31,020 nucleotides of DNA, taken from NCBI GenBank assembly GCA_017964105.1, contig JAGCSP010000003.1, positions 1 to 31,020 on the forward strand, in the 5' to 3' direction. Within the stretch, counting starts at the first letter, position 1; the number at the start of each line of letters is the position of its first letter. Below the pieces are notes generated by a model that did not search any database, was not told the origin of the DNA, and saw only the letters and a list, made by a program, of their open reading frames with translations. Both the position numbers and the translations under genes were made by a program. Below are positions 7,818 to 26,463 of the stretch, piece after piece. Source of the DNA: Clostridia bacterium. Lineage in GTDB: Bacteria; Bacillota; Clostridia; Christensenellales; UBA1242.

Positions 7818-7827
7818 GGTGGTGCGT

Positions 7828-8379
7828 ATGACAAAGAAAAAATTGTTGTTGCATAGTTGCTGTGGTCCATGTAGTAGTGGGGTGATTGAGGGGTTACTTG
7901 ATGAGTTTGATATGACAGTGTATTACTACAACCCAAATATTTATCCAAGAGAAGAATTTGATAAGCGTGCAAACGAACAACTAAAATACTTGCAAATTAT
8001 GAACCTTCCTTGTGTGGTGGGCGAGTATGATGACAAAGCATACTATACGGCAGTGAAAGGTTTAGAAAATGAGCCAGAGGGTGGCAAACGTTGTGCAGAG
8101 TGTTTTAAGCTTAGGTTGCTTGCCACTGCAAAGTATGCCAAAGAACATGGTTTTGATATATTTACAACAACTATGAGTGTGAGTCCACACAAAGATTTTG
8201 AACTACTAAATGAAATTGGGAAAGCAGTAAGTGAAGAAGTGGGCATAGATTACTTGTGGGCGAACTTTAAGAAAAAAGATGGATATCTAAAGAGTATTCG
8301 TAACAGTCAAAAGTATAATTTGTATCGTCAAAACTATTGTGGATGTGTATATTCACTTAATTCACGAGTGGAACATTAA
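7828..8379 (+). CDS. queH: Epoxyqueuosine reductase QueH
   Basis: LLLHSCCGPCS, YYYNPNIYP.EEF.KR, RCAEC..LRL, FTTTMSVSPHK, YRQNYCGC. ATG at 7828. Confidence 0.93.
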   Translation: MTKKKLLLHSCCGPCSSGVIEGLLDEFDMTVYYYNPNIYPREEFDKRANEQLKYLQIMNLPCVVGEYDDKAYYTAVKGLENEPEGGKRCAECFKLRLLATAKYAKEHGFDIFTTTMSVSPHKDFELLNEIGKAVSEEVGIDYLWANFKKKDGYLKSIRNSQKYNLYRQNYCGCVYSLNSRVEH

Positions 8380-11687: not shown

Positions 11688-11716
11688 TTGACAAGATTGA
11701 GTCGTAGTGGTATTAT
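11688..11716 (+). promoter_or_regulatory. Sigma70-type promoter with extended -10, upstream of the leader peptide
   Basis: TTGACA 11688-11693, 17 nt, TGgTATTAT (-10 at 11711-11716). The predicted +1 falls at or next to the ATG at 11723. Confidence 0.8.
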
Positions 11717-11758: not shown

Positions 11759-11858
11759 GCAAGTTGTGTATAAGAGTCCTTATGCATAACATTTTTGTTG
11801 TTTTAAGGATGATATAAATAAATTACTTTGTCCTTGAAACATGTTTCAAGGATTTTTT
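11737..11858 (+). promoter_or_regulatory. Transcription attenuator (1:2 pause hairpin, 2:3 antiterminator, 3:4 terminator)
   Basis: 1:2 = ATCC 11737-11740 / GGAT 11807-11810 plus AACAACAA / TTGTTGTT 11795-11802, enclosing a 12-bp hairpin (11763-11790). 2:3 = TGTTTTAAGGA 11799-11809 / TCCTTGAAACA 11831-11841 (11 bp, one G:U). 3:4 = 11831-11840 / 11843-11852 followed by TTTTTT. Confidence 0.78.
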
Positions 11859-11908
11859 GTTTGTAAAATATAATTATTTTGATAAAATAATTTATGTAGG
11901 AGTAAGAT

Positions 11909-13912
11909 ATGAAAAGTTTTAATGATGTAAAGCTAGAAAATATGATTGCACATCGTCCAAAATTTCCAAAGCGTGCAATGATTACATCTGGTATGCCAAA
12001 TGGCAATAAGTATTTGCATATTGGCCATGCAATGATGTGGGTGCACACTGATATTTTTGCACGTTTTATGCGTGATAGAATTGGGTATGACAATGTGTTA
12101 CATGTGTCTGGCACAGATAGCTTTGGAAGTCCTGTGGAAGAAGGATATCGCAAAGCTATAGAGGCTGGCGAGTTTAAGGGTACAATAAAAGAGTTTGCTT
12201 TATCCAAAAGACAATTTCAAAAAGATACATTTGAGAAATATGAAATTGGTATAAATTTGTATTCTGGTTCTTGCACAGATGAGGCAGTGCCTTTGCATGA
12301 AGAGACAGGTGCATGGATTTTTAATACTTTGCGTGAAAATGGTTTTATGAATAAACTTTCCACATATCAATTTTATGACGAAAAGTTAGGAATATTTCTT
12401 AATGGTAGGCAAGTAATTGGTAAGTGTCCAATAGATGGATGCACAGGTGAAAAAGGATATGCAGATGAATGTGACTTAGGTCATCAATATATGCCTAGCC
12501 AATTGATTGACCCTGTGAGTGTGTTGTCTGGTGAAAAACCAGTTTTGAAAAAAATTGACAACTGGTACTTTGACCTTCAAAATCACACAGATTTATTAAA
12601 AGATTGGGTAGAATATCTAAAAAAGAATACAAAAACACGTGAAAGCGTGATAAAAACAATTGAAGAGTTTTTAAAGAAACCAGAAATATATATCAAAAAA
12701 GAATACGAAAATGAATTTGAAAATGTAAAATTTTTGCTTCCAACTTTTGAATATAAAGATGATACAAAAAGTAGTTTTACCATTGTATTTGACAAGCTTG
12801 AAGATAGAGAAGTGGCATGCGAAATGCTTACAGATGCGGGCATTAGATATCGTACTGGCAAAACACTTGTACCATTTAGACTTACCGGCAACTGCGAGTG
12901 GGGTTTGAAATGTCCAAAAGAAGCGGGCGATAACTTGACATTTTGGGTGTGGCCAGAAAGTCTTTGGGCACCTATTACATTTACAAAGCAATGGTTAATA
13001 TCACAAGGTAAACCAAAAGAAGATTGGCGCAAATATTGGTGTGACAAAGATTGCCAAGTATATCAATTTATTGGTGAAGATAATATTTATTTCTATGGCC
13101 CTGCGCAAACTGCAATGTGGTTCTGCATGCAAGGAAAAAATCCTAGTGTAAATATACCAGATGGAAATTTAACAATTCCTCAAATTGTCAGTGATAAGCA
13201 CTTGTTGTTCTTAGGTAAAAAAGCAGGCAGCAGCAGTGCAGTAAAAGCACCACTTGCGCATGAATTATTGAATTATTACACTCCTGAGCAATTGCGTATG
13301 CACTTTATGGGTATGAATGTAATAAATAACCCAGCAAGCATATTCCCAAAACCATTAAACCCAGATGCTGATCCAAATGAAGTGGATCCTGTGGTACGAG
13401 AAGGCAATTTGCTTACAAATGTATTTAATAGAGTGCTTAGAAATCTTTGCTACACATGGCAAAAAGATTTTGATGGATTTATGCCATATGGCACACCAGA
13501 TGAAGATATAATTAAAGAAGGTGAACTTAGTTTACTAAAATATGAAAAACTTATGAGCGAGCAAAAACTTCATATGGTGAGCTATGAACTTGACACATAT
13601 ATTAGAAATATCAATAAGTATTGGGCAAAATATTCAGTGGAATTTGATAAAGACAAAGAGAAAGAAAAACAAGTAATAATCAATACACTTCACATGGTGC
13701 GTGTGGCAATGTTAGAATTACACCCAGTGGCACCTGTTGGTGTGGAAAATTTGGCTAAATTTATGGGAATTAGTAGTGAAGTGTTTAAATGGGAAAATGA
13801 AGACAAACTTATTTATGACTTTATTGAAAATCCAAAGCATCACAAACCAACATTCTTAAATCCAAGAGAAGATTTCTTTACCAAGCATCCAAGTCAATTT
13901 GAACAAGAATAA
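11909..13912 (+). CDS. Divergent class Ia aminoacyl-tRNA synthetase of the MetRS fold; amino-acid specificity uncertain
   Basis: HIGH motif, GTD..GSP, zinc knuckle CPIDGC...EC..GH, VW and FIGEDN motifs, KMSKS equivalent KKAGSSS, and N.FNR in the anticodon-binding helix bundle. AGGAG SD at 11898-11902. Confidence 0.85.
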   Translation: MKSFNDVKLENMIAHRPKFPKRAMITSGMPNGNKYLHIGHAMMWVHTDIFARFMRDRIGYDNVLHVSGTDSFGSPVEEGYRKAIEAGEFKGTIKEFALSKRQFQKDTFEKYEIGINLYSGSCTDEAVPLHEETGAWIFNTLRENGFMNKLSTYQFYDEKLGIFLNGRQVIGKCPIDGCTGEKGYADECDLGHQYMPSQLIDPVSVLSGEKPVLKKIDNWYFDLQNHTDLLKDWVEYLKKNTKTRESVIKTIEEFLKKPEIYIKKEYENEFENVKFLLPTFEYKDDTKSSFTIVFDKLEDREVACEMLTDAGIRYRTGKTLVPFRLTGNCEWGLKCPKEAGDNLTFWVWPESLWAPITFTKQWLISQGKPKEDWRKYWCDKDCQVYQFIGEDNIYFYGPAQTAMWFCMQGKNPSVNIPDGNLTIPQIVSDKHLLFLGKKAGSSSAVKAPLAHELLNYYTPEQLRMHFMGMNVINNPASIFPKPLNPDADPNEVDPVVREGNLLTNVFNRVLRNLCYTWQKDFDGFMPYGTPDEDIIKEGELSLLKYEKLMSEQKLHMVSYELDTYIRNINKYWAKYSVEFDKDKEKEKQVIINTLHMVRVAMLELHPVAPVGVENLAKFMGISSEVFKWENEDKLIYDFIENPKHHKPTFLNPREDFFTKHPSQFEQE

Positions 13913-13915
13913 TTT

Positions 13916-13942
13916 AAGACACATTTTATATGTGTCTTTTTT
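13916..13942 (+). terminator. Intrinsic terminator after the synthetase gene
   Basis: AAGACACAT-TTTAT-ATGTGTCTT followed by a T-tract. Confidence 0.8.
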
Positions 13943-17142: not shown

Positions 17143-19392
17143 ATGGATAATTTTGTAAATTGGATAATGAGTCACAATACACTTTTGTATAGCATATTCT
17201 TTGGAATTATGCTTATTTTTGCTTGTGTGTTTATTGTGAGATATTACGTAACAAACAAAAGTAATTTGTCGGCAAAACAAATTGTGCCACTAGTAATTAC
17301 GCTTGTGCTATTTGCATATAGCTTCGAGCAAATTTCTTGGGGCCATTTTTACAAATTGCTTGGCTTCAATATGTTTACATTCTATTTCTTGCTAGCATTT
17401 TTGTATTACGACAAAATTAGCAAACGCAAAATTACAAATATTGCATTCTGGTTTTTGTTGCTATCATCCATTTTAACATTTATTCTTGGATTTATTCCAG
17501 TATTTGAACAATATTTCTGGTATGGGGCAGAACACAGATTTGCAGGCATTGTGGGTAATCCAAACACACTTCAATTTTGTGTGGCTGTTACTTTGGCTGC
17601 AACACTCACAATATTCTTTAAAGGTGGCATGGGCAGAGTGGAAATGTACTTTAAGTGCTTAACCCTTGCAGGCATTGGCCTACTCACCAAATCAAAAACC
17701 TTTATGGTGATATTTGTGTTACTACTACTTACATATCTAATTTTTGAATTCATTTACCATGCAAAAGTTGCTGCTATTGAGCTTGGCACAATACTAGTGG
17801 TATTTGGCGTGATATATCTCATTTGGGGTAGAGTAATTATAGATTCACTACTTTCTAGATTGTACCTTGACGACACCACATCATTTATCAATGGCATCAC
17901 ATCAGATAGATGGGAATTGTGGGGCAAGTACTTGGGTTCTTGGACAGAAGATACATGGGCACTACTATTTGGCCAAGGATTTAGTTCGCCAGACTTTATA
18001 TATGGTGGCACTCACAACGACTATATCTTTGTGCTATACAACCTTGGCATTATTGGTGGTGTGCTTGTGCTTGGTCTTGGCATATCATACATTGTGGCAT
18101 GCAAGGATAAATTCAAAAATTTCCGCATTTGGAACTTGGTGCCAGTAATTACAATAATTGCAATTTCTTGCACAGAGAATTTGCTAATTCGTGCATTCTC
18201 ACTGCTTAGTGTATTTTGCTTTATGTTCTTGCTTGATAGCGAGAATTACAAAAAGGTGTTTAAAAAATTAAGTGATAGCAAAGTAATGCTAATTTGCACA
18301 ACCGACAATATGATTTGGCAATTTTTATTGCCACATATCAAGGATATGCAAGACGCAGGTGCAGATGTGCATTTGGTTTGCCATAAAACGGGGTTCTGGT
18401 TTGACGAATTAAAAGATATGGGATTTACCATGCACAATATCAATATGAAACGCAATCCTGTAAATCTTACAAACATAATTGCATATTTCAAGTTGTGCAA
18501 GTTACAACGCAAAGAAAAATATGACCTTGTATATTGCCAGCAACCAGTTGGTGGAATGCTTGGCAGATTAGTTGGAGCAAGATTCCGCTTGCCAGTGATA
18601 TACACAGCACATGGATTATTCTTTTACAAGGGTAATAGTAAACTAAAAAATTTTGTGTATAGGTCTGCTGAACGCGTGCTTGCAAGTAGCACAGATGTAT
18701 TCATCACAATGAATGATGAAGATTATAATGCCACAATCAAGTGGCCACCAAAGTTTAAATACAAAATTCATGGCATTGGAATGAATCCAGATAAATATGA
18801 AAAAACAAAATTTATCAAAAATCAATTAAGACAACAGCTTGGCCTTAATGATGGAGATAGATTGGTGATATCTATTGGTGAATTTAGAGGCGTAAAAAAT
18901 TATCCAACCATGGCAAAAGTGATGCAAAAAGTTATGCAAAGTGAACCAGACGTAAAATGGTTAATTTGTGGTACTGGTGCAGATAAGCAAGACATAGAAA
19001 ATCTTGTAGCAGAGTTGGGAATAAAAGACAATGTGAAATTCCTAGGATATCGCAAAGACGTTGATAGAATTGTGCGCATTAGTGATATTATGCTTCACTC
19101 ATCATATCGTGAGGGGCTTACAATGAGTATTATGGAAGTAATGCATTTTGGTCTTCCGGTAGTAACCACAACTTCGCGTGGTAACAAAGATTTAATTGTG
19201 GATGGCGAGGGTGGATTTACTCTTGACCCATTTGATGTGGATGCGCAAAGCGAAGCAGTGATTAAGTTACTAAATAATCCAACGCTCAGAACAAAAATGG
19301 GCAACTTCAATAAACAAGAAGTAAAGAAATACTATTTAGATAATGTTCAAAGCGAACTAAAACAAATATATAAGGATTGTGATTTACTATGA
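17143..19392 (+). CDS. Fusion protein: O-antigen ligase/Wzy_C-like membrane domain + GT4 glycosyltransferase
   Basis: N-terminal ~365 aa is multi-TM with RFAGIVGNPN and HNDY. C-terminal GT-B/GT4 domain with SYREGL...IMEVM..GLPVV. Confidence 0.8.
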   Translation: MDNFVNWIMSHNTLLYSIFFGIMLIFACVFIVRYYVTNKSNLSAKQIVPLVITLVLFAYSFEQISWGHFYKLLGFNMFTFYFLLAFLYYDKISKRKITNIAFWFLLLSSILTFILGFIPVFEQYFWYGAEHRFAGIVGNPNTLQFCVAVTLAATLTIFFKGGMGRVEMYFKCLTLAGIGLLTKSKTFMVIFVLLLLTYLIFEFIYHAKVAAIELGTILVVFGVIYLIWGRVIIDSLLSRLYLDDTTSFINGITSDRWELWGKYLGSWTEDTWALLFGQGFSSPDFIYGGTHNDYIFVLYNLGIIGGVLVLGLGISYIVACKDKFKNFRIWNLVPVITIIAISCTENLLIRAFSLLSVFCFMFLLDSENYKKVFKKLSDSKVMLICTTDNMIWQFLLPHIKDMQDAGADVHLVCHKTGFWFDELKDMGFTMHNINMKRNPVNLTNIIAYFKLCKLQRKEKYDLVYCQQPVGGMLGRLVGARFRLPVIYTAHGLFFYKGNSKLKNFVYRSAERVLASSTDVFITMNDEDYNATIKWPPKFKYKIHGIGMNPDKYEKTKFIKNQLRQQLGLNDGDRLVISIGEFRGVKNYPTMAKVMQKVMQSEPDVKWLICGTGADKQDIENLVAELGIKDNVKFLGYRKDVDRIVRISDIMLHSSYREGLTMSIMEVMHFGLPVVTTTSRGNKDLIVDGEGGFTLDPFDVDAQSEAVIKLLNNPTLRTKMGNFNKQEVKKYYLDNVQSELKQIYKDCDLL

Positions 19393-20534
19393 TTATATAC
19401 TACTTATTATTTGTTATAATTTTGCTTTGTGGATTGTATTCCATTTATGTTAATACAAATGAATATGATAACACATACCATTCAAAAAGTGTTTTAAGAT
19501 TAGTATGTGACAAATTATTTAAGGATTATTTATTTGTCGTACTATTGTTAATTGTCTTTGGTGCATACAGAGGTTTTAGAGTTGGATTAGACAATCCAAT
19601 GTATCTTAGTTACTATCATGCACTTGAAGATAATTTTGCAGCAAACTGGTCACTATATGGATTTGAATTTGGTTATAGGGTAATCAATGCTTTTGCTTAT
19701 GGATTAAATATTGGTTATTTTGGTGTGCAACTTATTTGCACAACAATTATTGTATTGTCGTTTTATAGATTTATTAATACATTTTCACTAAATAAAACAA
19801 TTTCTTGGCTTTTGTTCTTGTGCCTTGGAATATATGCACAATCACTTTGTATAGTAAGGCAAATGCTTGCACTAAGTTTTGTTTTGCATGCAATCATAAG
19901 TTTATACAACAAAAAGTATTTTAGATATGTTATCTACACAATTATTGCTGTGTTATTTCACAAATCTGCGTTAATTACACTTGTGTATTTGCCACTAGCA
20001 TTTATACCTTTAAGTGAAATTAGTGTAGCAATATATACAGCTTGCGCAACACTTGTATCTGTTACATTTATTCCATTATTCAAGCTATTTGTAAAAATAT
20101 TTGATTCAAGGTATGCTTATTACATATTTGGTGACATTGGTGAATTTAATACACCTGTTAGTTTGCCAGATATGTTATTTACAATAGGTATGTTGGTACT
20201 ATTTATTGTTGTATTTCTATTTAAAGATAAATTATCAAAAACAGATCAACTAAACAATAACAAATTCTTAACATTATTTTTGTTTGTACCACTCATTAGA
20301 ATGTTTGGTGCATACATTCAATTTCCAACATTATCACAAAGAATTACACCTTATTTCTTCTTTTCAATAATTGTGATAGTACCATATTATTTAAAACTAA
20401 TTAAAGAAAAATATACCAAGTGGTATGTGCCCGCACTAGTTGTTACTATTGCCGGTGCGCTTGTGTACATGTACTTCTTGTACGCAGTAAAAGTAAGTTG
20501 TGGCGTTGTGCCATATAATTTTGAAATATTATAG
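19389..20534 (+). CDS. EpsG family polysaccharide polymerase (Wzy)
   Basis: R...GLDNPMY, EFGY, IVRQMLA and FHKSA motifs; ~10 hydrophobic segments. Confidence 0.85.
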   Translation: MIIYYLLFVIILLCGLYSIYVNTNEYDNTYHSKSVLRLVCDKLFKDYLFVVLLLIVFGAYRGFRVGLDNPMYLSYYHALEDNFAANWSLYGFEFGYRVINAFAYGLNIGYFGVQLICTTIIVLSFYRFINTFSLNKTISWLLFLCLGIYAQSLCIVRQMLALSFVLHAIISLYNKKYFRYVIYTIIAVLFHKSALITLVYLPLAFIPLSEISVAIYTACATLVSVTFIPLFKLFVKIFDSRYAYYIFGDIGEFNTPVSLPDMLFTIGMLVLFIVVFLFKDKLSKTDQLNNNKFLTLFLFVPLIRMFGAYIQFPTLSQRITPYFFFSIIVIVPYYLKLIKEKYTKWYVPALVVTIAGALVYMYFLYAVKVSCGVVPYNFEIL

Positions 20535-20542
20535 GAGAAAAA

Positions 20543-21262
20543 ATGATACCAAAGATTATTCACTACATTTGGCTAGGTAAAGGTGAAACACCGAAGGTGT
20601 TTGACAAGTGCCTTGCCTCATGGAAGAAATATTGCCCAGATTGGGAAATCAAGCGCTGGGATGAAAGTAATCTTAATATAGACTTGTGCCCATACGTACG
20701 CGAAGCATACGATGCACGCAAATTTGCATTTGCTTCTGACGTATTGCGCCTAGATGTGCTCAATCGCTTTGGTGGAGTATATTTAGATATAGATGTGGAA
20801 CTACTAAAACCCATTGACGAGTTTTTGGATGAGTACGCATTCACTGGCTTTGAAACAAGTGGCTTAATTGCGCCAGGACTAATTCTTGCATGCGAAAAAG
20901 AAAATTTGGATTTTGTAGCAATATTAAACAGTTACAAGTCTCGTCACTTTTTGGTGGACGGAGTGCAAGACACAAAAACCATTTGCCAAACATTTACAGA
21001 GTATTATGAGAAATTTGGTCTAAAAGCAGAGAATATAACTCAAAAAGTAAACAATTTTACTGTGTATGCTAGTGAATATTTTAGTCCATATGATGTAATA
21101 ACAAACAAAAAGAAAATAACATCTAAAACATATTCAATCCATTGGTATAATGCTAGTTGGTATACACCATGGCAAAAGTTTAAACGTGGTTGCAAAAAAT
21201 GCTTAAACTTTGTTTCATTTGGATTGTTTGGTAAAGTGTTACAAAAGGTAAGAAAGAAATAA
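20543..21262 (+). CDS. GT32 (Gly_transf_sug/OCH1-like) glycosyltransferase
   Basis: MIPKIIHYIW, FAFASD..R, GGVYLDIDVE (DxD) and YSIHW motifs. Confidence 0.9.
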   Translation: MIPKIIHYIWLGKGETPKVFDKCLASWKKYCPDWEIKRWDESNLNIDLCPYVREAYDARKFAFASDVLRLDVLNRFGGVYLDIDVELLKPIDEFLDEYAFTGFETSGLIAPGLILACEKENLDFVAILNSYKSRHFLVDGVQDTKTICQTFTEYYEKFGLKAENITQKVNNFTVYASEYFSPYDVITNKKKITSKTYSIHWYNASWYTPWQKFKRGCKKCLNFVSFGLFGKVLQKVRKK

Positions 21263-21469
21263 ATGAAAGATTTAATATCAGTCATTGTACCAGTGTACAA
21301 TGTAGAGAAATATCTTAATAGATGTGTAGATAGTATTTTAAACCAAACATACACAAATTTGGAAGTAATACTAGTGGATGATGGCAGCCCTGATGGCTGT
21401 CCTGCCATTTGCGATGCATACGCCAAGAAAGATAAACGTGTGAAAGTAATACATAAAGCAAATGGAGGG
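21263..21469 (+). repeat. Direct repeat copy 1 (5' 207 nt of GT2 gene)
   Basis: Manual codon comparison with 22262-22468 gives 23 mismatches in 207 nt (~89%) and 67/69 identical amino acids. Confidence 0.85.
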
Positions 21470-22249
21470 GTAAGCGATGCACGTAATATGGGCATTGATT
21501 CAAGCAAATCGGAATATTTAACATTTGTTGATAGTGATGATTGGCTTGAAAAAGATTATATTCAAACTTTAAGCAATTATGTGGATGCTGCGGATTATGT
21601 ATGCTGTGGGCTTACTTGCTGGCTAAATAATACTGGCAACAACTTTGATAATATTATTAGTGGAATTAAAGTAAATAAGAAAAATAACACTGTTATTCGC
21701 AAATGCAAAAAGTTTAGTGGGAACATGGAAAAACAAACAAAAAACTATTTTCGCGCATTTGAAAAAGCAGTAGTGCTTGGGCCAATGTCTAAAATTTATA
21801 AAAAATCTTTAATTACTACTAATTTTATCGTTGGTAGAAAGAAGGGCGAAGATGTGCTATTTAACGTTGCATATTTGAAAAATTGTAAAACAATTTGTAA
21901 TATAGATTATGCTGGCTATAATTATGAGTGCAGAAATGAAAATTCAGCAATACATACAATAAAATTACAAAGTAAAGACGATGATGAGTTTATTGCGGGT
22001 ATACAATCTTTGGCGGATGTGTTTGGCACAAAAGCAAACAAGTATATCAATTCATTTGTTGTGATTGATGCTTTTAAAACTATGTGTGCAGATAATATAG
22101 TGTTAGCATACAAGGATTATTATGCTGCAAACAAGCAAATTATCAAAAATTCAAAAGCAATATTGCTTAAAAATAAAATTTTGCTTTATCTAATAAAGCA
22201 TAGGCACTTTAAATTACTTGCAAAATTAGTAAGACGTAAATTTTCGTAA
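21263..22249 (+). CDS. GT2 family glycosyltransferase
   Basis: ISVIVPVYNVEKYL..C, VDDGSPD, NGGVS.ARN and FVDSDD. Confidence 0.92.
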   Translation: MKDLISVIVPVYNVEKYLNRCVDSILNQTYTNLEVILVDDGSPDGCPAICDAYAKKDKRVKVIHKANGGVSDARNMGIDSSKSEYLTFVDSDDWLEKDYIQTLSNYVDAADYVCCGLTCWLNNTGNNFDNIISGIKVNKKNNTVIRKCKKFSGNMEKQTKNYFRAFEKAVVLGPMSKIYKKSLITTNFIVGRKKGEDVLFNVAYLKNCKTICNIDYAGYNYECRNENSAIHTIKLQSKDDDEFIAGIQSLADVFGTKANKYINSFVVIDAFKTMCADNIVLAYKDYYAANKQIIKNSKAILLKNKILLYLIKHRHFKLLAKLVRRKFS

Positions 22250-22261
22250 AAAGGAAATAAA

Positions 22262-22468
22262 ATGAAAGATTTAATATCAGTCATTGTACCTGTGTACAAT
22301 GTAGAGAAATATCTTAATAGATGTGTAGATAGTATACTTGCCCAAACATACACAAATTTGGAAGTGATACTAGTAGACGATGGCAGTCCAGATGGCTGTC
22401 CTGCTATTTGTGATGCGTATGTAAAGAAAGATAAACGTGTGAAAGTTATTCACAAGGCGAATGGTGGG
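22262..22468 (+). repeat. Direct repeat copy 2 (5' 207 nt of GT2 gene)
   Basis: Partner of 21263-21469, offset by 999 nt. Confidence 0.85.
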
Positions 22469-23194
22469 CAAGGTACCGCACGCAATGCAGGTCTTGATAT
22501 TGCAAAAGGGGATTATATTTCGCTTATTGATTCTGATGATTGGATAGAAAAAGATTTTATTAAAATATTGCATAATTACATTATAAATAATGATGCCGAT
22601 TTAGTTATTTGTAATTATAATGAAGTTAATGAACAAGATCAAATTATAAAACACAGCAATTTACAATATAAAGTATACAAATCAAATAAGTTTGATTTAT
22701 TATTTAATCAAATTGATACTGTACCAGTTATTGTTCCATGGAATAAGTTGTATAAAAAATCCGTGTTTAGCAATTTAAGATATGCTGATACTAGAATATA
22801 TGAAGATGAAGGTATTGCATATCAACTAATTAATAATTGCAAAAAAATAATTGTTGTTAATGATGTTCTTAATAATTATATGATAAGAAGTGGTAGCACC
22901 ATGGATAAGTCGTTGGTGAATGAGCGAATGTTAGGTGTTATTAAAATAATGGAAGAAAGATTAAATTATGTGAAGAATACAGAGTATGAACAATCTGCCA
23001 CAAAAATGTTTTTGTATTCTATATTTTTATCATACATGCGCGTTTACAAAGATAAAGAATTGCGTAATTTAGTATATAAAATTTTTATTGATAATTATAA
23101 ATTTGTAAAAAAATTACCAGTTAAGGATAGATTTAAATATAAAATGTTTAGATTATTTCCTAAAATTATTGTAAATATTAAAAGGAGTCGATGA
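22262..23194 (+). CDS. GT2 family glycosyltransferase
   Basis: Same N-terminal GT2 motifs, plus LIDSDD, PWNKLYK and YEDE. Confidence 0.92.
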   Translation: MKDLISVIVPVYNVEKYLNRCVDSILAQTYTNLEVILVDDGSPDGCPAICDAYVKKDKRVKVIHKANGGQGTARNAGLDIAKGDYISLIDSDDWIEKDFIKILHNYIINNDADLVICNYNEVNEQDQIIKHSNLQYKVYKSNKFDLLFNQIDTVPVIVPWNKLYKKSVFSNLRYADTRIYEDEGIAYQLINNCKKIIVVNDVLNNYMIRSGSTMDKSLVNERMLGVIKIMEERLNYVKNTEYEQSATKMFLYSIFLSYMRVYKDKELRNLVYKIFIDNYKFVKKLPVKDRFKYKMFRLFPKIIVNIKRSR

Positions 23195-24039
23195 TGAATA
23201 TTTTAATGTGCATAAATAATGGTTATGTACACCCAGCGATTAATTTAATGTATTCAATAAGACAGTATACTGAATGTGATATTGATTTGTTTATATTATC
23301 CACTGGTTTAAATGATAATAGTCTAAACGAATTGCAAAAAAAATTAGAAGCAATATCAATCAATGTACATACTTATATATCTAAGGATATTGATATGGAA
23401 CTCAATATAGGAAATAATCATTATAGTGTTGATATGTTTTTAAGGATATTGTCCTTTGGTATTTTACCTAAAAATATTGAAAAGATATTATATTTAGATG
23501 CAGATATTATAGCTTTAGATAATATAGAATTGTTGTATAATCAAAATTTGGGCAATAAACTCCTAGGCGTAGTTGAGGATATAAAAGGAAGTTCAAACAA
23601 AAATGCTGAATATATAAAAACAATAAATATTCAACATAAGTATTTTAATTCCGGTGTAATGCTAATGAATCTATCTGCCATTAGAAAAGAGTGGGATATT
23701 AAAAAAATTAAAGATTACATTTTTCATAATTCTTCAAAGTATAGATATCCAGATCAAGACATGTTAAATGTTTTATGTTCTAATAAGCAATTACAATTTT
23801 TAGATATAAAATTTAATTATCAAATAAGACACAATGAAAGCATAGATATAGATAATGTTGTCATATTACATTATGTGGACAGATTAAAACCTTGGAATGT
23901 TTTTATTATTAAACCTCACGAAAAACTATTTTGGGAAAATTATAAGCTTATAAAATCAAAAGAATTATATCGAATTAGAAAATGTTTTTTAAAGAAAAGA
24001 TTGATTGGAAAGATTAGAAAAGTATTACATTTAAAGTAA
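23191..24039 (+). CDS. GT8 family glycosyltransferase
   Basis: RIL, KILYLDADII, YFNSGVMLMNL, PDQD.LN and ILHY...KPW. Confidence 0.92.
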   Translation: MMNILMCINNGYVHPAINLMYSIRQYTECDIDLFILSTGLNDNSLNELQKKLEAISINVHTYISKDIDMELNIGNNHYSVDMFLRILSFGILPKNIEKILYLDADIIALDNIELLYNQNLGNKLLGVVEDIKGSSNKNAEYIKTINIQHKYFNSGVMLMNLSAIRKEWDIKKIKDYIFHNSSKYRYPDQDMLNVLCSNKQLQFLDIKFNYQIRHNESIDIDNVVILHYVDRLKPWNVFIIKPHEKLFWENYKLIKSKELYRIRKCFLKKRLIGKIRKVLHLK

Positions 24040-24043
24040 ATAT

Positions 24044-25594
24044 ATGGAAAACGAAAGAGTAAAAAATATTAAACGCAATTTAATATTTAATGTTATTAAA
24101 TATGGGGTGGACCTAGTATTTAAGTTTGTTTTGCGCACTGTAATGATTTATTATCTTGGTGTGCAATATTTGGGACTAAATGGACTATTTAGTAACATTT
24201 TTACTTTTCTTAACCTTGCCGACCTTGGTATTGGCACAGCAATAGTATTTAGCATGTACAAGCCAGTGGCAGAAAACGACATAGAAAAAATTAAAACTTT
24301 GCAAAATATATACAAAAAGTTTTATTTGATAGTAAGTATAATAATACTTGCACTCGGTGGAATAGTGACGCCATTTATAAAATCATTTATCAATGGTGAA
24401 AGCCCAAGTGATATAAACTTGTATTTGCTTTTTGGTATGTACCTAATTAATGCTGTGTGTGGATACCTATTTGCACACAAACGATCCCTTCTATTTGCAT
24501 ACCAACGCAACGATATTGAAAACAAGATTAAGTCCGTTTGCACAATAGTTATGTCTGGCTTGCAAGTTGCAGCAATTGTGATATTTAAGAATTACTACAT
24601 ATATTATGCAATCACAATAGTATTTACTATTGTGGATGCCCTTTGGGTGTATCTTGTTGCAAAGAAATATTATCCAGAGATATCGGGCCCATCAAATAAG
24701 CTTGATGATGATACCAAGAGAGAGATAACTAGAAATATAACAGCTATAAGTATGCATAAAGTAGGCGGTGCGATAGTATTCTCCACAGATAATATACTTA
24801 TTTCCGCATTTATTAGCCTTACTGTGCTTGGAGCATATTCTAACTATGCATTAATTTTTACCACCTTGGGCACGTTGTATATATTACTTAACAATGCATT
24901 AACGAGTAGTTTGGGTAACATGGTTGCTAGTTGTGATGTAGAATACTGCTATAAAAGATTTAGGTTGGTAAATTTCTCTTACTCATATTTAACTGCGTTT
25001 ACAACTATATGTATGTTTGTGTTATTCCAACCATTTATCAAAATGTGGACATCAAACAACCCTGATTATTTGCTTAATGTGTATACAGTGATGTTATTAT
25101 GCATTAGTTATTATTTAACGCGCATGCGCACATCAGTTATATTGTTTAGAGATGTAACAGGTTTATTTTGGAACGATAGATGGAAACCAATTGTGGAATC
25201 TGTGGTAAACCTTGTGGCATCACTACTACTTGTAAAACCACTTGGATTAAATGGTATAATACTTGGAACTATTATTAGCACAGTGATTGCACCATTATGG
25301 GTAGAGCCACTAGTGCTATACAAACATTACTTTAAAAAGCCGCTTGTAAAATACTTTACACGCTATGCAATAGACACAATTATTATGGTGGCGGCAGGTG
25401 TGGCATGTTACTTTATTTGCGCACTAATTCCAGAAGGTGGAATATGGTGGCTACTACTTAGATTTGGTGTGTGTGCAGTAAGTTGTGCATTGTTCTTATT
25501 CATATTAAATCTACTTACACCAGAAGGCAGAAGTGTGATAGGTTATGCAAAAAGATTATTTAAAAAGAAAAGTGATGAAAACACAGCTAAGTAA
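24044..25594 (+). CDS. Wzx-type oligosaccharide flippase (MOP superfamily)
   Basis: 516 aa with 12-14 hydrophobic segments. LG..YLGLNGLF, LADLGIG and TDNILIS...LG.YSNY motifs. Confidence 0.88.
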   Translation: MENERVKNIKRNLIFNVIKYGVDLVFKFVLRTVMIYYLGVQYLGLNGLFSNIFTFLNLADLGIGTAIVFSMYKPVAENDIEKIKTLQNIYKKFYLIVSIIILALGGIVTPFIKSFINGESPSDINLYLLFGMYLINAVCGYLFAHKRSLLFAYQRNDIENKIKSVCTIVMSGLQVAAIVIFKNYYIYYAITIVFTIVDALWVYLVAKKYYPEISGPSNKLDDDTKREITRNITAISMHKVGGAIVFSTDNILISAFISLTVLGAYSNYALIFTTLGTLYILLNNALTSSLGNMVASCDVEYCYKRFRLVNFSYSYLTAFTTICMFVLFQPFIKMWTSNNPDYLLNVYTVMLLCISYYLTRMRTSVILFRDVTGLFWNDRWKPIVESVVNLVASLLLVKPLGLNGIILGTIISTVIAPLWVEPLVLYKHYFKKPLVKYFTRYAIDTIIMVAAGVACYFICALIPEGGIWWLLLRFGVCAVSCALFLFILNLLTPEGRSVIGYAKRLFKKKSDENTAK

Positions 25595-25607
25595 TAGTTG
25601 TGTTTTT
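25578..25607 (+). terminator. Intrinsic terminator at the end of the flippase gene
   Basis: AAAACACAGCTA-AGTAA-TAGTTGTGTTTTT. Confidence 0.65.
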
Positions 25608-25671
25608 ATTTTTGTTCCAATAATAAAAGGTGTATAATTGTTATTATACTTAGGAGAAATGATAGATAATT

Positions 25672-26463
25672 ATGTACGCATTTTTTAAGAGAACTTTTGA
25701 TATATGTTTTAGTGCAGTAATGCTAATACTACTTAGCCCTGTGATGGCGGTTACTGCGTTACTTGTAAGAATTAAACTTGGCGGACCTGTGATATTTGTA
25801 AATTACAGGCCAGGCAAAAATGGCAAGGTGTTTGCTTTATACAAATTTCGTAGCATGAGTAATGCTAGGGACGAAAATGGTGACTTACTTCCAGACGAAA
25901 AACGTTTTACTAAGTTTGGCAAATTACTTCGTGCCACATCACTTGACGAGTTGCCACAATTGTGGAATATTTTGAAGGGTGACATGAGTCTTATTGGTCC
26001 ACGCCCAAGACTAATTAAAGATGCATTATATTTTGGCATAGAAGGAAATAAAATATATAGTTTGGCAGTACGTCCAGGTTTATCAGGGCGCAGCCAAGTG
26101 TATGGCAGAAATGACAACACATGGGACAAGATATTTGAGCACGATAAGTATTATTGTGAGCATTTTGGGTTTTGGCAAGATTTTAAGATATTCTTCCGCA
26201 CATTTTATGTTGTGCTAAGTCACAAATCAATAGAAAAAGAAGAGTTTAAGTATTACAATGATTATTGCTTTGCTAAGGGTTTGATTGATGAGAATGAATA
26301 CAAACGTGGCCTTGCAGAGCACAAAGCGATGGAGCATAATTGCGATCTTGGAATCACACAATATGTAACCGTAAAAGGTGAAATTCCAAAACTAACTAAG
26401 GCAAAACAAACTAAACAAAATGTTGTTGTGGATGATGAAGAATTGAAAACCGCAAACGAATAA
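25672..26463 (+). CDS. Priming phosphoglycosyltransferase (Bac_transf family)
   Basis: KRTFDI, RPG.NGK.F.LYKFRSM, LRATSLDELPQLWNILKGDMSLIGPRP and VRPGLSG..QV.GR. Confidence 0.93.
   Translation: MYAFFKRTFDICFSAVMLILLSPVMAVTALLVRIKLGGPVIFVNYRPGKNGKVFALYKFRSMSNARDENGDLLPDEKRFTKFGKLLRATSLDELPQLWNILKGDMSLIGPRPRLIKDALYFGIEGNKIYSLAVRPGLSGRSQVYGRNDNTWDKIFEHDKYYCEHFGFWQDFKIFFRTFYVVLSHKSIEKEEFKYYNDYCFAKGLIDENEYKRGLAEHKAMEHNCDLGITQYVTVKGEIPKLTKAKQTKQNVVVDDEELKTANE

Follow-up and report, generated by a model that had tools for sequence, protein, structure and literature searches.

Which amino acid and which tRNA are served by a protein that has the fold of methionyl-tRNA synthetase (MetRS), has lost residues that line the methionine pocket and read the CAU anticodon, and is encoded in a genome that also contains a canonical MetRS? 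This question is raised by a gene in a 31,020-nucleotide stretch of DNA from Clostridia bacterium (GenBank assembly GCA_017964105.1, contig JAGCSP010000003.1, positions 1 to 31,020), the whole of which we refer to as the window. The product of the gene, P0001, had been proposed from the DNA sequence to be an active adenylating enzyme of altered amino-acid and tRNA specificity. Textbooks and published surveys recognize two routes to Gln-tRNA-Gln, glutaminyl-tRNA synthetase (GlnRS) or GatCAB, and the surveys hold that all GlnRS-less prokaryotes use transamidation (PMC5388404, PMC2330236, PMC4206432), in one case on the basis of about 2,500 genomes (PMC5388404). The data described here suggest that P0001 is probably a glutaminyl-tRNA synthetase that arose from MetRS.

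P0001 is a MetRS paralogue with a remodelled pocket and anticodon domain

The open reading frame is intact and contains all of the motifs quoted in the original prediction. The only Pfam matches of P0001 are to PF09334, the MetRS catalytic family (E = 6e-61), and to PF00133, and an AlphaFold2 (AF2) model made with 48 homologues in the input (predicted local distance difference test score, pLDDT, 90) has E. coli MetRS structures as its top structural matches, with target-normalised template modelling (TM) scores of 0.83-0.84. P0001 scores below the cut-offs of two curated MetRS equivalog models, NF001100 (225 bits vs 587) and TIGR00398 (172 vs 336). The source genome (G000; 0.79 Mb in 94 contigs, 87% complete) encodes a separate, canonical MetRS on contig C38, with the motifs PIYY, WIDALTNY, RFHAMIWP, KISKS and TTPW and a C-terminal tRNA-binding domain, indicating that P0001 is a paralogue and not the MetRS of the cell. 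In the 87% of this genome that is represented, we found no match to PF03950, GatB or GatA and a single PF00749 domain. P0001 itself does not have the PF00749 plus PF03950 architecture of canonical class Ib GlnRS, and it is at most a functional analogue of GlnRS, not a member of that family.

We aligned P0001 with the MetRSs of E. coli and P. abyssi and with 20 other MetRSs using HMMER, MAFFT and, for a profile of the family against E. coli MetRS, hhalign, and we scored conservation over 121 homologues of 55-88% identity; E. coli MetRS residues are numbered without Met1. The alignments bear out A12G and L13M in TSGMPNGNK, as well as K295E, H301Y and W305Q in GEDNIYFYGPAQ and the conversion of KMSKS to K-A-G-S-S. 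A third proposed change in the first motif, Y15N, is present in P0001, but only 8 of 121 close homologues have it and the family consensus is Tyr; it is a subclade-specific change. The segment WPESLWAP had been read against WLDAPIGY as A256S, P257L and Y260P, and this reading holds in part. In the hhalign alignment, PES is a three-residue insert and A354-P355-I356-T357-F358 lie opposite A256-P257-I258-G259-Y260, such that A256 and P257 are probably kept and Y260 is replaced by Phe, whereas gap-free alignments give Y260P in place of Y260F. A helix begins at A354 in the AF2 model of P0001, and the corresponding helix of E. coli MetRS presumably starts at A256/P257. The register is ambiguous, but Tyr260 is lost under every alignment and its hydroxyl is gone either way. 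The MetRS pocket residues L13, Y260, H301 and W/F305 correspond in P0001 to M29, F358 or P355, Y396 and Q400. Only A256 and P257 were restored by the better alignment; the other pocket changes stand. H301 and W/F305 are present in all 20 comparison MetRSs, and A12G, L13M, H301Y, W305Q and loss of W461 were found in none of the 20 nearest MetRSs.

Residues of the catalytic core are largely kept. HIGH (H37-H40), D52 (D70), W253 (W348) and the zinc knuckle (C173...H192) are retained, as had been claimed; together with K332 and the full anticodon domain, HIGH, D52 and the zinc knuckle are strictly conserved in the family. In the KMSKS loop, K438 lies opposite K332 and is kept. Loss of the second Lys does not set P0001 apart, since K-x-S-T-S is the sequence of the nearest true MetRSs. 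Similarly, I297N is not diagnostic, because those MetRSs already have GKDN. A change that the original prediction did not list is the replacement of R233 by Gly (ITRD to LTGN) in clade A, the group to which P0001 belongs (described below).

In the anticodon domain, the P-W461 motif is absent from the aligned segment (NKYWAKYSVE), in agreement with the loss of W461 noted earlier. The retention of N391 and R395 that was claimed alongside it was contradicted by all alignments, which place R508 and N512 opposite these residues; the adjacent N507, at E. coli position 390, is a derived Asn common to the family. As judged from the aligned sequences, P0001 appears to have kept none of the CAU-anticodon readers N391, R395 and W461. 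The extra insertion is also real: it is conserved, comprises ~70 residues (about 256-326) and takes the place of the WDISRD region, where R233 is changed to Gly. Its model has a beta-alpha-beta-beta-alpha-beta topology (pLDDT 83), and comparison with structures in the PDB yielded no specific relative, only generic ferredoxin-like folds with a best E-value of 0.03.

Regulatory elements upstream of the gene and its orthologues point to tRNA-Gln

A strong sigma-70-type promoter, a short open reading frame with four consecutive Gln codons and a terminator precede the P0001 gene (Table 1). The promoter ends 6 nt 5' of the leader ATG, suggesting that the leader-peptide mRNA may be leaderless. The region 3' of the leader folds with a free energy of -39.7 kcal/mol (z = -6.0). 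The CAA run could pair with the downstream UUGUUGUU segment and the adjacent AAGGAU with the 5' arm of the terminator, an arrangement that would have the logic of an attenuator: when Gln-tRNA-Gln is scarce, ribosomes would stall on the QQQQ leader and the terminator would not form. The orthologue in genome G007, which is 97% identical to P0001, is preceded by the leader MTNIKSQQQY*, with one CAA deleted in frame, and its attenuator region is 94% identical. We considered the QQQQ leader as a family-wide trait and rejected it; the leader is absent from loci L009 (60% identical) and L010 (75%) and is shared only by the G007 copy.

An Rfam scan of 40 upstream regions of orthologues detected a T-box (RF00230, 87-106 bits) directly 5' of the gene and in the sense orientation in eight orthologues (G313, G205, G125, G364, G252, G216, G386 and G156), which span five families (f61, f49, f48, f31 and f65). 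The specifier loop reads GAA-(N)-CAA/CAG-G-stem in 8/8 cases, and the nucleotide before the specifier codon varies (A, G, C or none), such that Gln is the only constant reading frame. The antiterminator bulge is UGGC in all eight, which predicts a G73 discriminator base, and tRNA-Gln(CUG) of the source genome has U1:A72 and G73. The T-boxes in these lineages would serve the same regulatory purpose as the leader peptide. Leader Gln codons with a terminator at this locus and Gln-specifier T-boxes in eight orthologues are what one would predict for a synthetase gene that is autoregulated through charging of its cognate tRNA. Canonical glnS in five sister genomes was searched for a preceding T-box with no hit, so these genomes offer no same-clade positive control for the reading of the specifier. 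One further T-box, in genome G266 (locus L012, 507-701, + strand), faces away from the paralogue and toward a divergent neighbour that is cut by the end of the locus.

The family comprises two clades nested among MetRSs

A word-indexed protein search returned at least 120 full-length homologues of P0001 with 55-88% identity. Most carry no label or are called "class I tRNA ligase family protein," and they come from Clostridia and Christensenellales metagenome-assembled genomes (MAGs). The signatures of this group, clade A, are all present in P0001 (GMP-x-GNK-x-LH-x-GH, RYRTGKTLVPFRLTGN, WPESLWAPISF, GEDN-x-YFYGPAQ, K-A-S/G-S-S and NLLTNV-x-N), and chance does not account for them, as they vary little or not at all over 121 homologues. 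The orthologues reside in housekeeping neighbourhoods, for example in the order rpmB-X-tmk-SDR or 3' of a guanylate kinase gene.

An exhaustive phmmer search over 1.8 billion representatives showed that the family grades into a second group, clade B (P0148, P0162, P0180 and P0194), with true MetRSs next at about 140 bits. Clade B is found in Bdellovibrionota (Halobacteriovorax marinus, Bacteriovorax stolpii, Oligoflexus tunisiensis and many MAGs) and in some Polyangiaceae. Its members retain KMSKS, R233 and PYANG-LHLGH and, like P0001, score below the MetRS cut-offs. Common to both clades are WPESL-APISF, G-x-DN-x-YFY...Q, an insert in the same place and loss of W461, and states that set A and B jointly apart from 20 MetRSs include G28 (A12), PES..AP, Q386 (H291), Y396 (H301), H431 (Y325) and N507 (390). 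Y396 is invariant in the two clades, and the residue at that position is His in 20/20 MetRSs. In a maximum-likelihood tree, A and B together form a clade with 100/100 support that has a long stem and is nested among GKDN-type MetRSs; each of the two is monophyletic, clade A at 100/100.

Within the genus of the source organism, the paralogue of G000 and G007 is only 54-57% identical to the copy in G002, G004, G005, G008 and G011-G016, and it differs from the copy of these congeners in its neighbourhood and in having the leader-peptide attenuator. These observations suggest that the G000/G007 paralogue is a horizontally acquired replacement copy. In addition, two genomes have a partial copy beside the full one (G005:C20:5772-7034, residues 1-420, and G016:C178:1116-1937, residues 1-275), and these could be assembly fragments, pseudogenes or strain variants.

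GlnRS is absent from most genomes that encode the paralogue

We scored GlnRS by the presence of PF03950. Among 31 relatives, GlnRS was found in 0/12 carriers of the paralogue and in 17/19 non-carriers, and the remaining two non-carriers have GatB. An even sample of the class (399 genomes, all at least 90% complete, with 41 carriers across about 13 families) contained GlnRS in 3 of the 41 carriers and 261 of the 358 non-carriers, for which the uncorrected Fisher p-value of 1e-16 overstates the case, because related genomes are not statistically independent. Both states, paralogue and GlnRS, occur within each of the genera g1, g14, g40, g143 and g85, implying several independent swaps.

GlnRS-less genomes of the class sample also differ in GatB, which is present in 27/38 carriers vs 95/97 non-carriers (tables cross-checked by hand). 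The 11 class-sample carriers that have neither GlnRS nor GatB include G132 and G185 (100% complete) and G305, G407, G112 and G215 (99%), and two carriers in the relatives set, G008 (97%) and G012 (95%), likewise lack both; genomes without GlnRS and GatB are about 15-fold enriched among carriers. G000, G008, G012, G132 and G185 each encode only one Glu/GlnRS catalytic domain, and a search of these five genomes recovered no GatA. Overall, GatB co-occurs with the paralogue about as often as with GlnRS. A missing asparaginyl-tRNA synthetase (AsnRS) was ruled out as the cause of GatB retention in carriers: AsnRS is present in 51/52 of them, and therefore a need for Asn-tRNA does not by itself explain why GatB is kept.

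The pattern extends to clade B (genome records G428-G432, loci L052-L131). Each of five clade B genomes has a canonical MetRS, no GlnRS and one full-length glutamyl-tRNA synthetase (GluRS), and GatB was found only in Oligoflexus. Among 121 Bdellovibrionota genomes, 31 have the clade B protein and 16 have GlnRS, with zero overlap, and 13 of the carriers also lack GatB. A comparison of eight tRNA-Gln sequences showed no systematic difference between carriers and GlnRS-bearing congeners that would indicate coevolution with the enzyme. U1:A72, G73 and the YUG anticodon are found in both groups, indicating that the MetRS-derived enzyme must read the same tRNA.

A probable third route to Gln-tRNA-Gln and its alternatives

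From the fold, motif states, regulatory elements, phyletic pattern and phylogeny documented here, we infer that P0001 activates glutamine and charges tRNA-Gln, and we are fairly confident in calling it a MetRS-derived glutaminyl-tRNA synthetase on these genomic grounds. The altered amino-acid and tRNA specificity that had been predicted is supported by the Gln specifiers of the T-boxes, the QQQQ leader, the exclusion of GlnRS in two phyla and the lack of GatB in many carriers; catalytic activity itself is putative. With slightly more reserve, we consider it likely that the family constitutes a third route to Gln-tRNA-Gln that arose once from MetRS, changed both specificities to Gln, spread over at least two phyla, displaced GlnRS repeatedly and is the sole enzyme for this purpose in some genomes, including that of cultured Halobacteriovorax.

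The sequence of events could have been as follows. An archaeal-type (GKDN) MetRS would have been duplicated, and the duplicate would have acquired specificity for Gln and tRNA-Gln once. The enzyme would activate glutamine with ATP in a pocket remodelled by A12G, L13M, replacement of Y260 by Phe or Pro, H301Y, W305Q and the three-residue insert after W253, while D52, the residue that holds the alpha-amino group, is retained, and would then transfer glutamine to tRNA-Gln; the role of each residue in this scheme is putative. The tRNA would be read by a rebuilt anticodon domain, in which N391, R395 and W461 are replaced and a new Asn occupies position 390, and the ferredoxin-like insert in the connective-peptide region may add to tRNA recognition. 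In many lineages, the enzyme would since have displaced GlnRS.

Several observations weigh against this interpretation, in addition to the non-independence of genomes noted above. Both R233 and KMSKS matter for catalysis in E. coli MetRS. In clade A, R233 is missing and KMSKS has decayed to K-A-S/G-S-S; K-x-S-T-S is, however, already the state of the nearest true MetRSs. The helices of the anticodon domain differ between clades A and B. About 70% of carriers retain GatB, and for these either redundancy of the enzyme or some different task tied to tRNA-Gln is conceivable. The paralogue and GlnRS occur together in three genomes; the copy of the paralogue is intact and T-box-controlled in G205, contains a TGA in G216 and is a fragment in G347. 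Bacteriovorax marinus SJ is listed with GlnRS, and with no accession given, in a survey from 2014 (PMC4206432 Table S1). The non-carrier G284 (99% complete, 20 contigs) has no GlnRS, GatB or paralogue, indicating that other solutions or detection gaps exist; a divergent paralogue was sought in G284 and in G342, a fragmented genome from a carrier genus that likewise lacks GlnRS and GatB, and none was found. Finally, activity and substrate are deduced from genomics.

Two alternatives accept the connection with tRNA-Gln. P0001 could have some other role connected with tRNA-Gln or glutamine, as a modifying enzyme (cf. the GluRS paralogue GluQRS), an editing or regulatory factor or a Gln-sensing pseudo-synthetase, with Gln-tRNA-Gln coming from an unrecognised source. 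The loss of R233 and the degraded KMSKS of clade A could mean that its aminoacylation chemistry is reduced, and G284 shows that a genome can lack the three recognised routes. Such a role would leave unexplained both the exclusion of GlnRS within genera and the ~15-fold enrichment of GlnRS- and GatB-less genomes among carriers, however, and it sits poorly with the strict conservation of HIGH, D52, K332, the zinc knuckle and the full anticodon domain and with the KMSKS and R233 of clade B; we regard it as unlikely. Alternatively, P0001 could charge tRNA-Gln with glutamate, as a non-discriminating or GluRS2-like enzyme that feeds GatCAB with no direct attachment of Gln. Regulation by tRNA-Gln fits this proposal equally well, as does the GatB retained by about 70% of carriers, and there is a precedent for binding of a glutamyl-adenylate analogue by a MetRS-like domain (PyrN, 9l8v, structural rank 32). 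GatB is missing, though, from at least 11 carriers of high quality in Clostridia and from 13 in Bdellovibrionota, and GatA is absent from the five that were checked, so Glu-tRNA-Gln could not be converted there. Moreover, the exclusion is with GlnRS and not with GatB, and the shared signature positions show no new basic residue that might accommodate a carboxylate. Together, these data make charging with glutamate quite improbable.

A tRNA-independent ligase that acts on a metabolite or lipid, comparable to the hydrazine synthetase domains or working with the adjacent OlsB- and PlsC-like genes, is suggested by the occurrence of MetRS-like adenylating domains in natural-product pathways and by the two genes 3' of the P0001 gene, which encode an acyltransferase and a GNAT of the N-acyl amino acid synthase type. 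This alternative is very unlikely given that orthologues have other neighbours (they are located between rpmB and tmk or elsewhere), that a Pfam scan found no cupin domain in P0001, that a promoter, an attenuator and a terminator serve the P0001 gene separately, and that the anticodon-binding domain is complete and conserved and the gene is under T-box control. The least plausible possibility is a second, divergent but genuine MetRS, such as a stress or inhibitor-resistant isoform of the MetRS2 kind known from Gram-positive pathogens, which would fit the MetRS fold and the well-known antibiotic-resistance duplicates of aminoacyl-tRNA synthetases (aaRSs; PMC5388404) but not the Gln rather than AUG specifiers, the changes at L13, Y260, H301 and W305 and at the CAU readers N391, R395 and W461, the scores below the MetRS equivalog cut-offs or the exclusion of GlnRS, for which a MetRS has no reason.

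Features of the locus and neighbouring genes

The positions of the elements and motifs discussed above are given in Table 1.

Table 1. Features of the P0001 gene, its product and its flanking regulatory elements (coordinates in the window).
Feature	Position	Strand	Evidence or remark
Sigma-70-type promoter: TTGACA, 17-nt spacer, TG-extended TATTAT	11688..11716	+	11/12 consensus positions
Leader peptide ORF MKNIKSQQQQY*, four consecutive CAA (Gln) codons	11723..11758	+	read from sequence
Putative attenuator RNA: hairpin 11763-11790, UUGUUGUU/AAGGAU segment, terminator hairpin 11830-11853 and T run	11763..11863	+	terminator scan, fold
Shine-Dalgarno sequence AGGAG, 6 nt 5' of ATG	11898..11902	+	read from sequence
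CDS, MetRS-derived synthetase P0001, proposed glutaminyl-tRNA synthetase	11909..13912	+	667 aa; AF2 model, structural match
Motif TSGMPNGNKYLHIGH, residues 26-40: A12G, L13M, Y15N, HIGH kept	11984..12028	+	alignments
Zinc knuckle C173-P-x3-C178 ... C188-D-L-G-H192	12425..12484	+	C173, C178, C188 and H192 family-invariant; aligns with E. coli knuckle
Inserted domain, residues about 256-326, ends in invariant RYRTGKTLVPFRLTGN	12674..12886	+	no E. coli MetRS counterpart
WPESLWAPITF, residues 348-358: W253 kept, 3-residue insert, Y260 replaced	12950..12982	+	alignments; clade B has WPESLIAPISF
GEDNIYFYGPAQ, residues 389-400: K295E, H301Y, W305Q	13073..13108	+	alignments
Degraded KMSKS loop KKAGSSS, residues 437-443	13217..13237	+	alignments
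First anticodon-domain helix NLLTNVFNRVLRN, residues 500-512: N391 to R508, R395 to N512, N507 derived	13406..13444	+	alignments
RNINKYW, residues 566-572: W461-bearing region in MetRS, P-W motif absent	13604..13624	+	alignments
Intrinsic terminator 3' of CDS	13916..13938	+	terminator-like site scan

Downstream of the P0001 gene (14020-16673) are two overlapping genes, the first encoding a GNAT protein of the OlsB/FeeM N-acyl amino acid synthase type (PF13444) and the second a fusion of VTT/DedA, a PlsC acyltransferase and a zinc ribbon; the pair looks like an aminolipid synthesis module. We rejected a functional link between P0001 and the OlsB-like GNAT and VTT-PlsC proteins, since the adjacency is absent from orthologues, which makes the neighbourhood incidental, and the P0001 gene has its own promoter and terminator. 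Farther downstream (17143-26463) is a same-strand cluster of glycosyltransferase genes (GT4, EpsG, two GT2, GT8 and a sugar transferase), in which the G+C content dips to 0.26 at 22001-24000. This cluster is probably an exopolysaccharide or capsule locus, part of which was possibly acquired.

Two genes upstream encode proteins with a connection to tRNA. A stand-alone YqeY-like protein (PF09424; 5055-5477) is related to the tRNA-binding tail of GatB. In Deinococcus, a YqeY domain is fused to GlnRS and aids binding of tRNA-Gln. The YqeY-like protein might assist the P0001 enzyme, or its presence might be incidental. QueH, an epoxyqueuosine reductase (7819-8379), is encoded about 3.5 kb upstream and is probably unrelated to the P0001 gene.

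Comparison with known systems and significance

P0001 shares with the archaeal/type-2 zinc-knuckle MetRSs (P. abyssi 1RQG and E. coli 1QQT) the Rossmann fold, HIGH, D52, W253, F300, the zinc knuckle, K332 and the helical anticodon domain. It differs from them in the PES insert, the pocket changes, the replacement of R233 by Gly, K-A-G/S-S-S in place of KMSKS and the replacement of N391, R395 and W461, as well as in having the extra ~70-residue ferredoxin-like domain and no C-terminal Trbp111 domain. Unlike these enzymes, it coexists with a canonical MetRS and would be regulated via tRNA-Gln. With canonical GlnRS (class Ib; PF00749 plus PF03950), P0001 shares the proposed function, the phyletic niche, with or without GatCAB, and the tRNA-Gln features. 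P0001 is a subclass Ia protein, however, with a helical anticodon domain rather than beta-barrels, and its homology to GlnRS is limited to the class I Rossmann core. The GatCAB route, in which a non-discriminating GluRS acts with an amidotransferase, likewise supplies Gln-tRNA-Gln without GlnRS, whereas P0001 is a single protein of aaRS fold that is present where GatB and GatA were not found.

The MetRS-like domains of hydrazine synthetases provide a precedent for a MetRS fold that has been re-specified, including for Glu (PyrN C-terminal domain, 9L8V; PMC8664883, PMC12376268). Those enzymes are fused to cupins, are tRNA-independent, use hydroxylamine acceptors and are encoded in biosynthetic clusters, in contrast to P0001, with its lack of a cupin, its housekeeping context and its regulation by tRNA-Gln. 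Control of the P0001 family resembles that of the E. coli pheM/pheST attenuator and of the T-boxes of Firmicute aaRS genes in responding to charging of the enzyme's own tRNA, through leader codons or a specifier. In E. coli, pheST is controlled by leader-peptide attenuation. Leader-peptide control of an aaRS gene is unusual in the phylum of the source organism.

The two classes of lysyl-tRNA synthetase (LysRS) have a patchy, mostly exclusive distribution. Class I and class II LysRS (PMC1475646) thus illustrate the same non-orthologous displacement, in which one amino acid has two synthetases that are unrelated or only distantly related. That system differs from the present case in that both Gln enzymes are class I, that the substitute derives from the synthetase of a different amino acid and that the function of the substitute is a prediction.

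We found no description of a MetRS-derived Gln enzyme family in the open-access full-text literature, to which our search was confined (subscription-only papers lay outside it), and the 2024 AARS Online catalogue lists none (PMC11580382). Within the limits of this search, the enzyme looks undescribed. If our interpretation is correct, the family would represent a natural case in which a synthetase switched amino acid as well as tRNA, for which class I LysRS and SepRS would be the closest precedents in significance, and would serve as a test case for the evolution of the machinery that assigns the genetic code. It would also correct the annotation of thousands of proteins now named "class I tRNA ligase family protein" or "methionine--tRNA ligase" and would supply synthetase engineering with an orthogonal pair from nature and a blueprint for the pocket. 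Because there are cultured carriers (Halobacteriovorax, Bacteriovorax and Oligoflexus), the hypothesis is directly testable. For the organisms themselves, a MetRS-derived glutaminyl-tRNA synthetase would explain genomes that seem to lack any means of decoding Gln codons.

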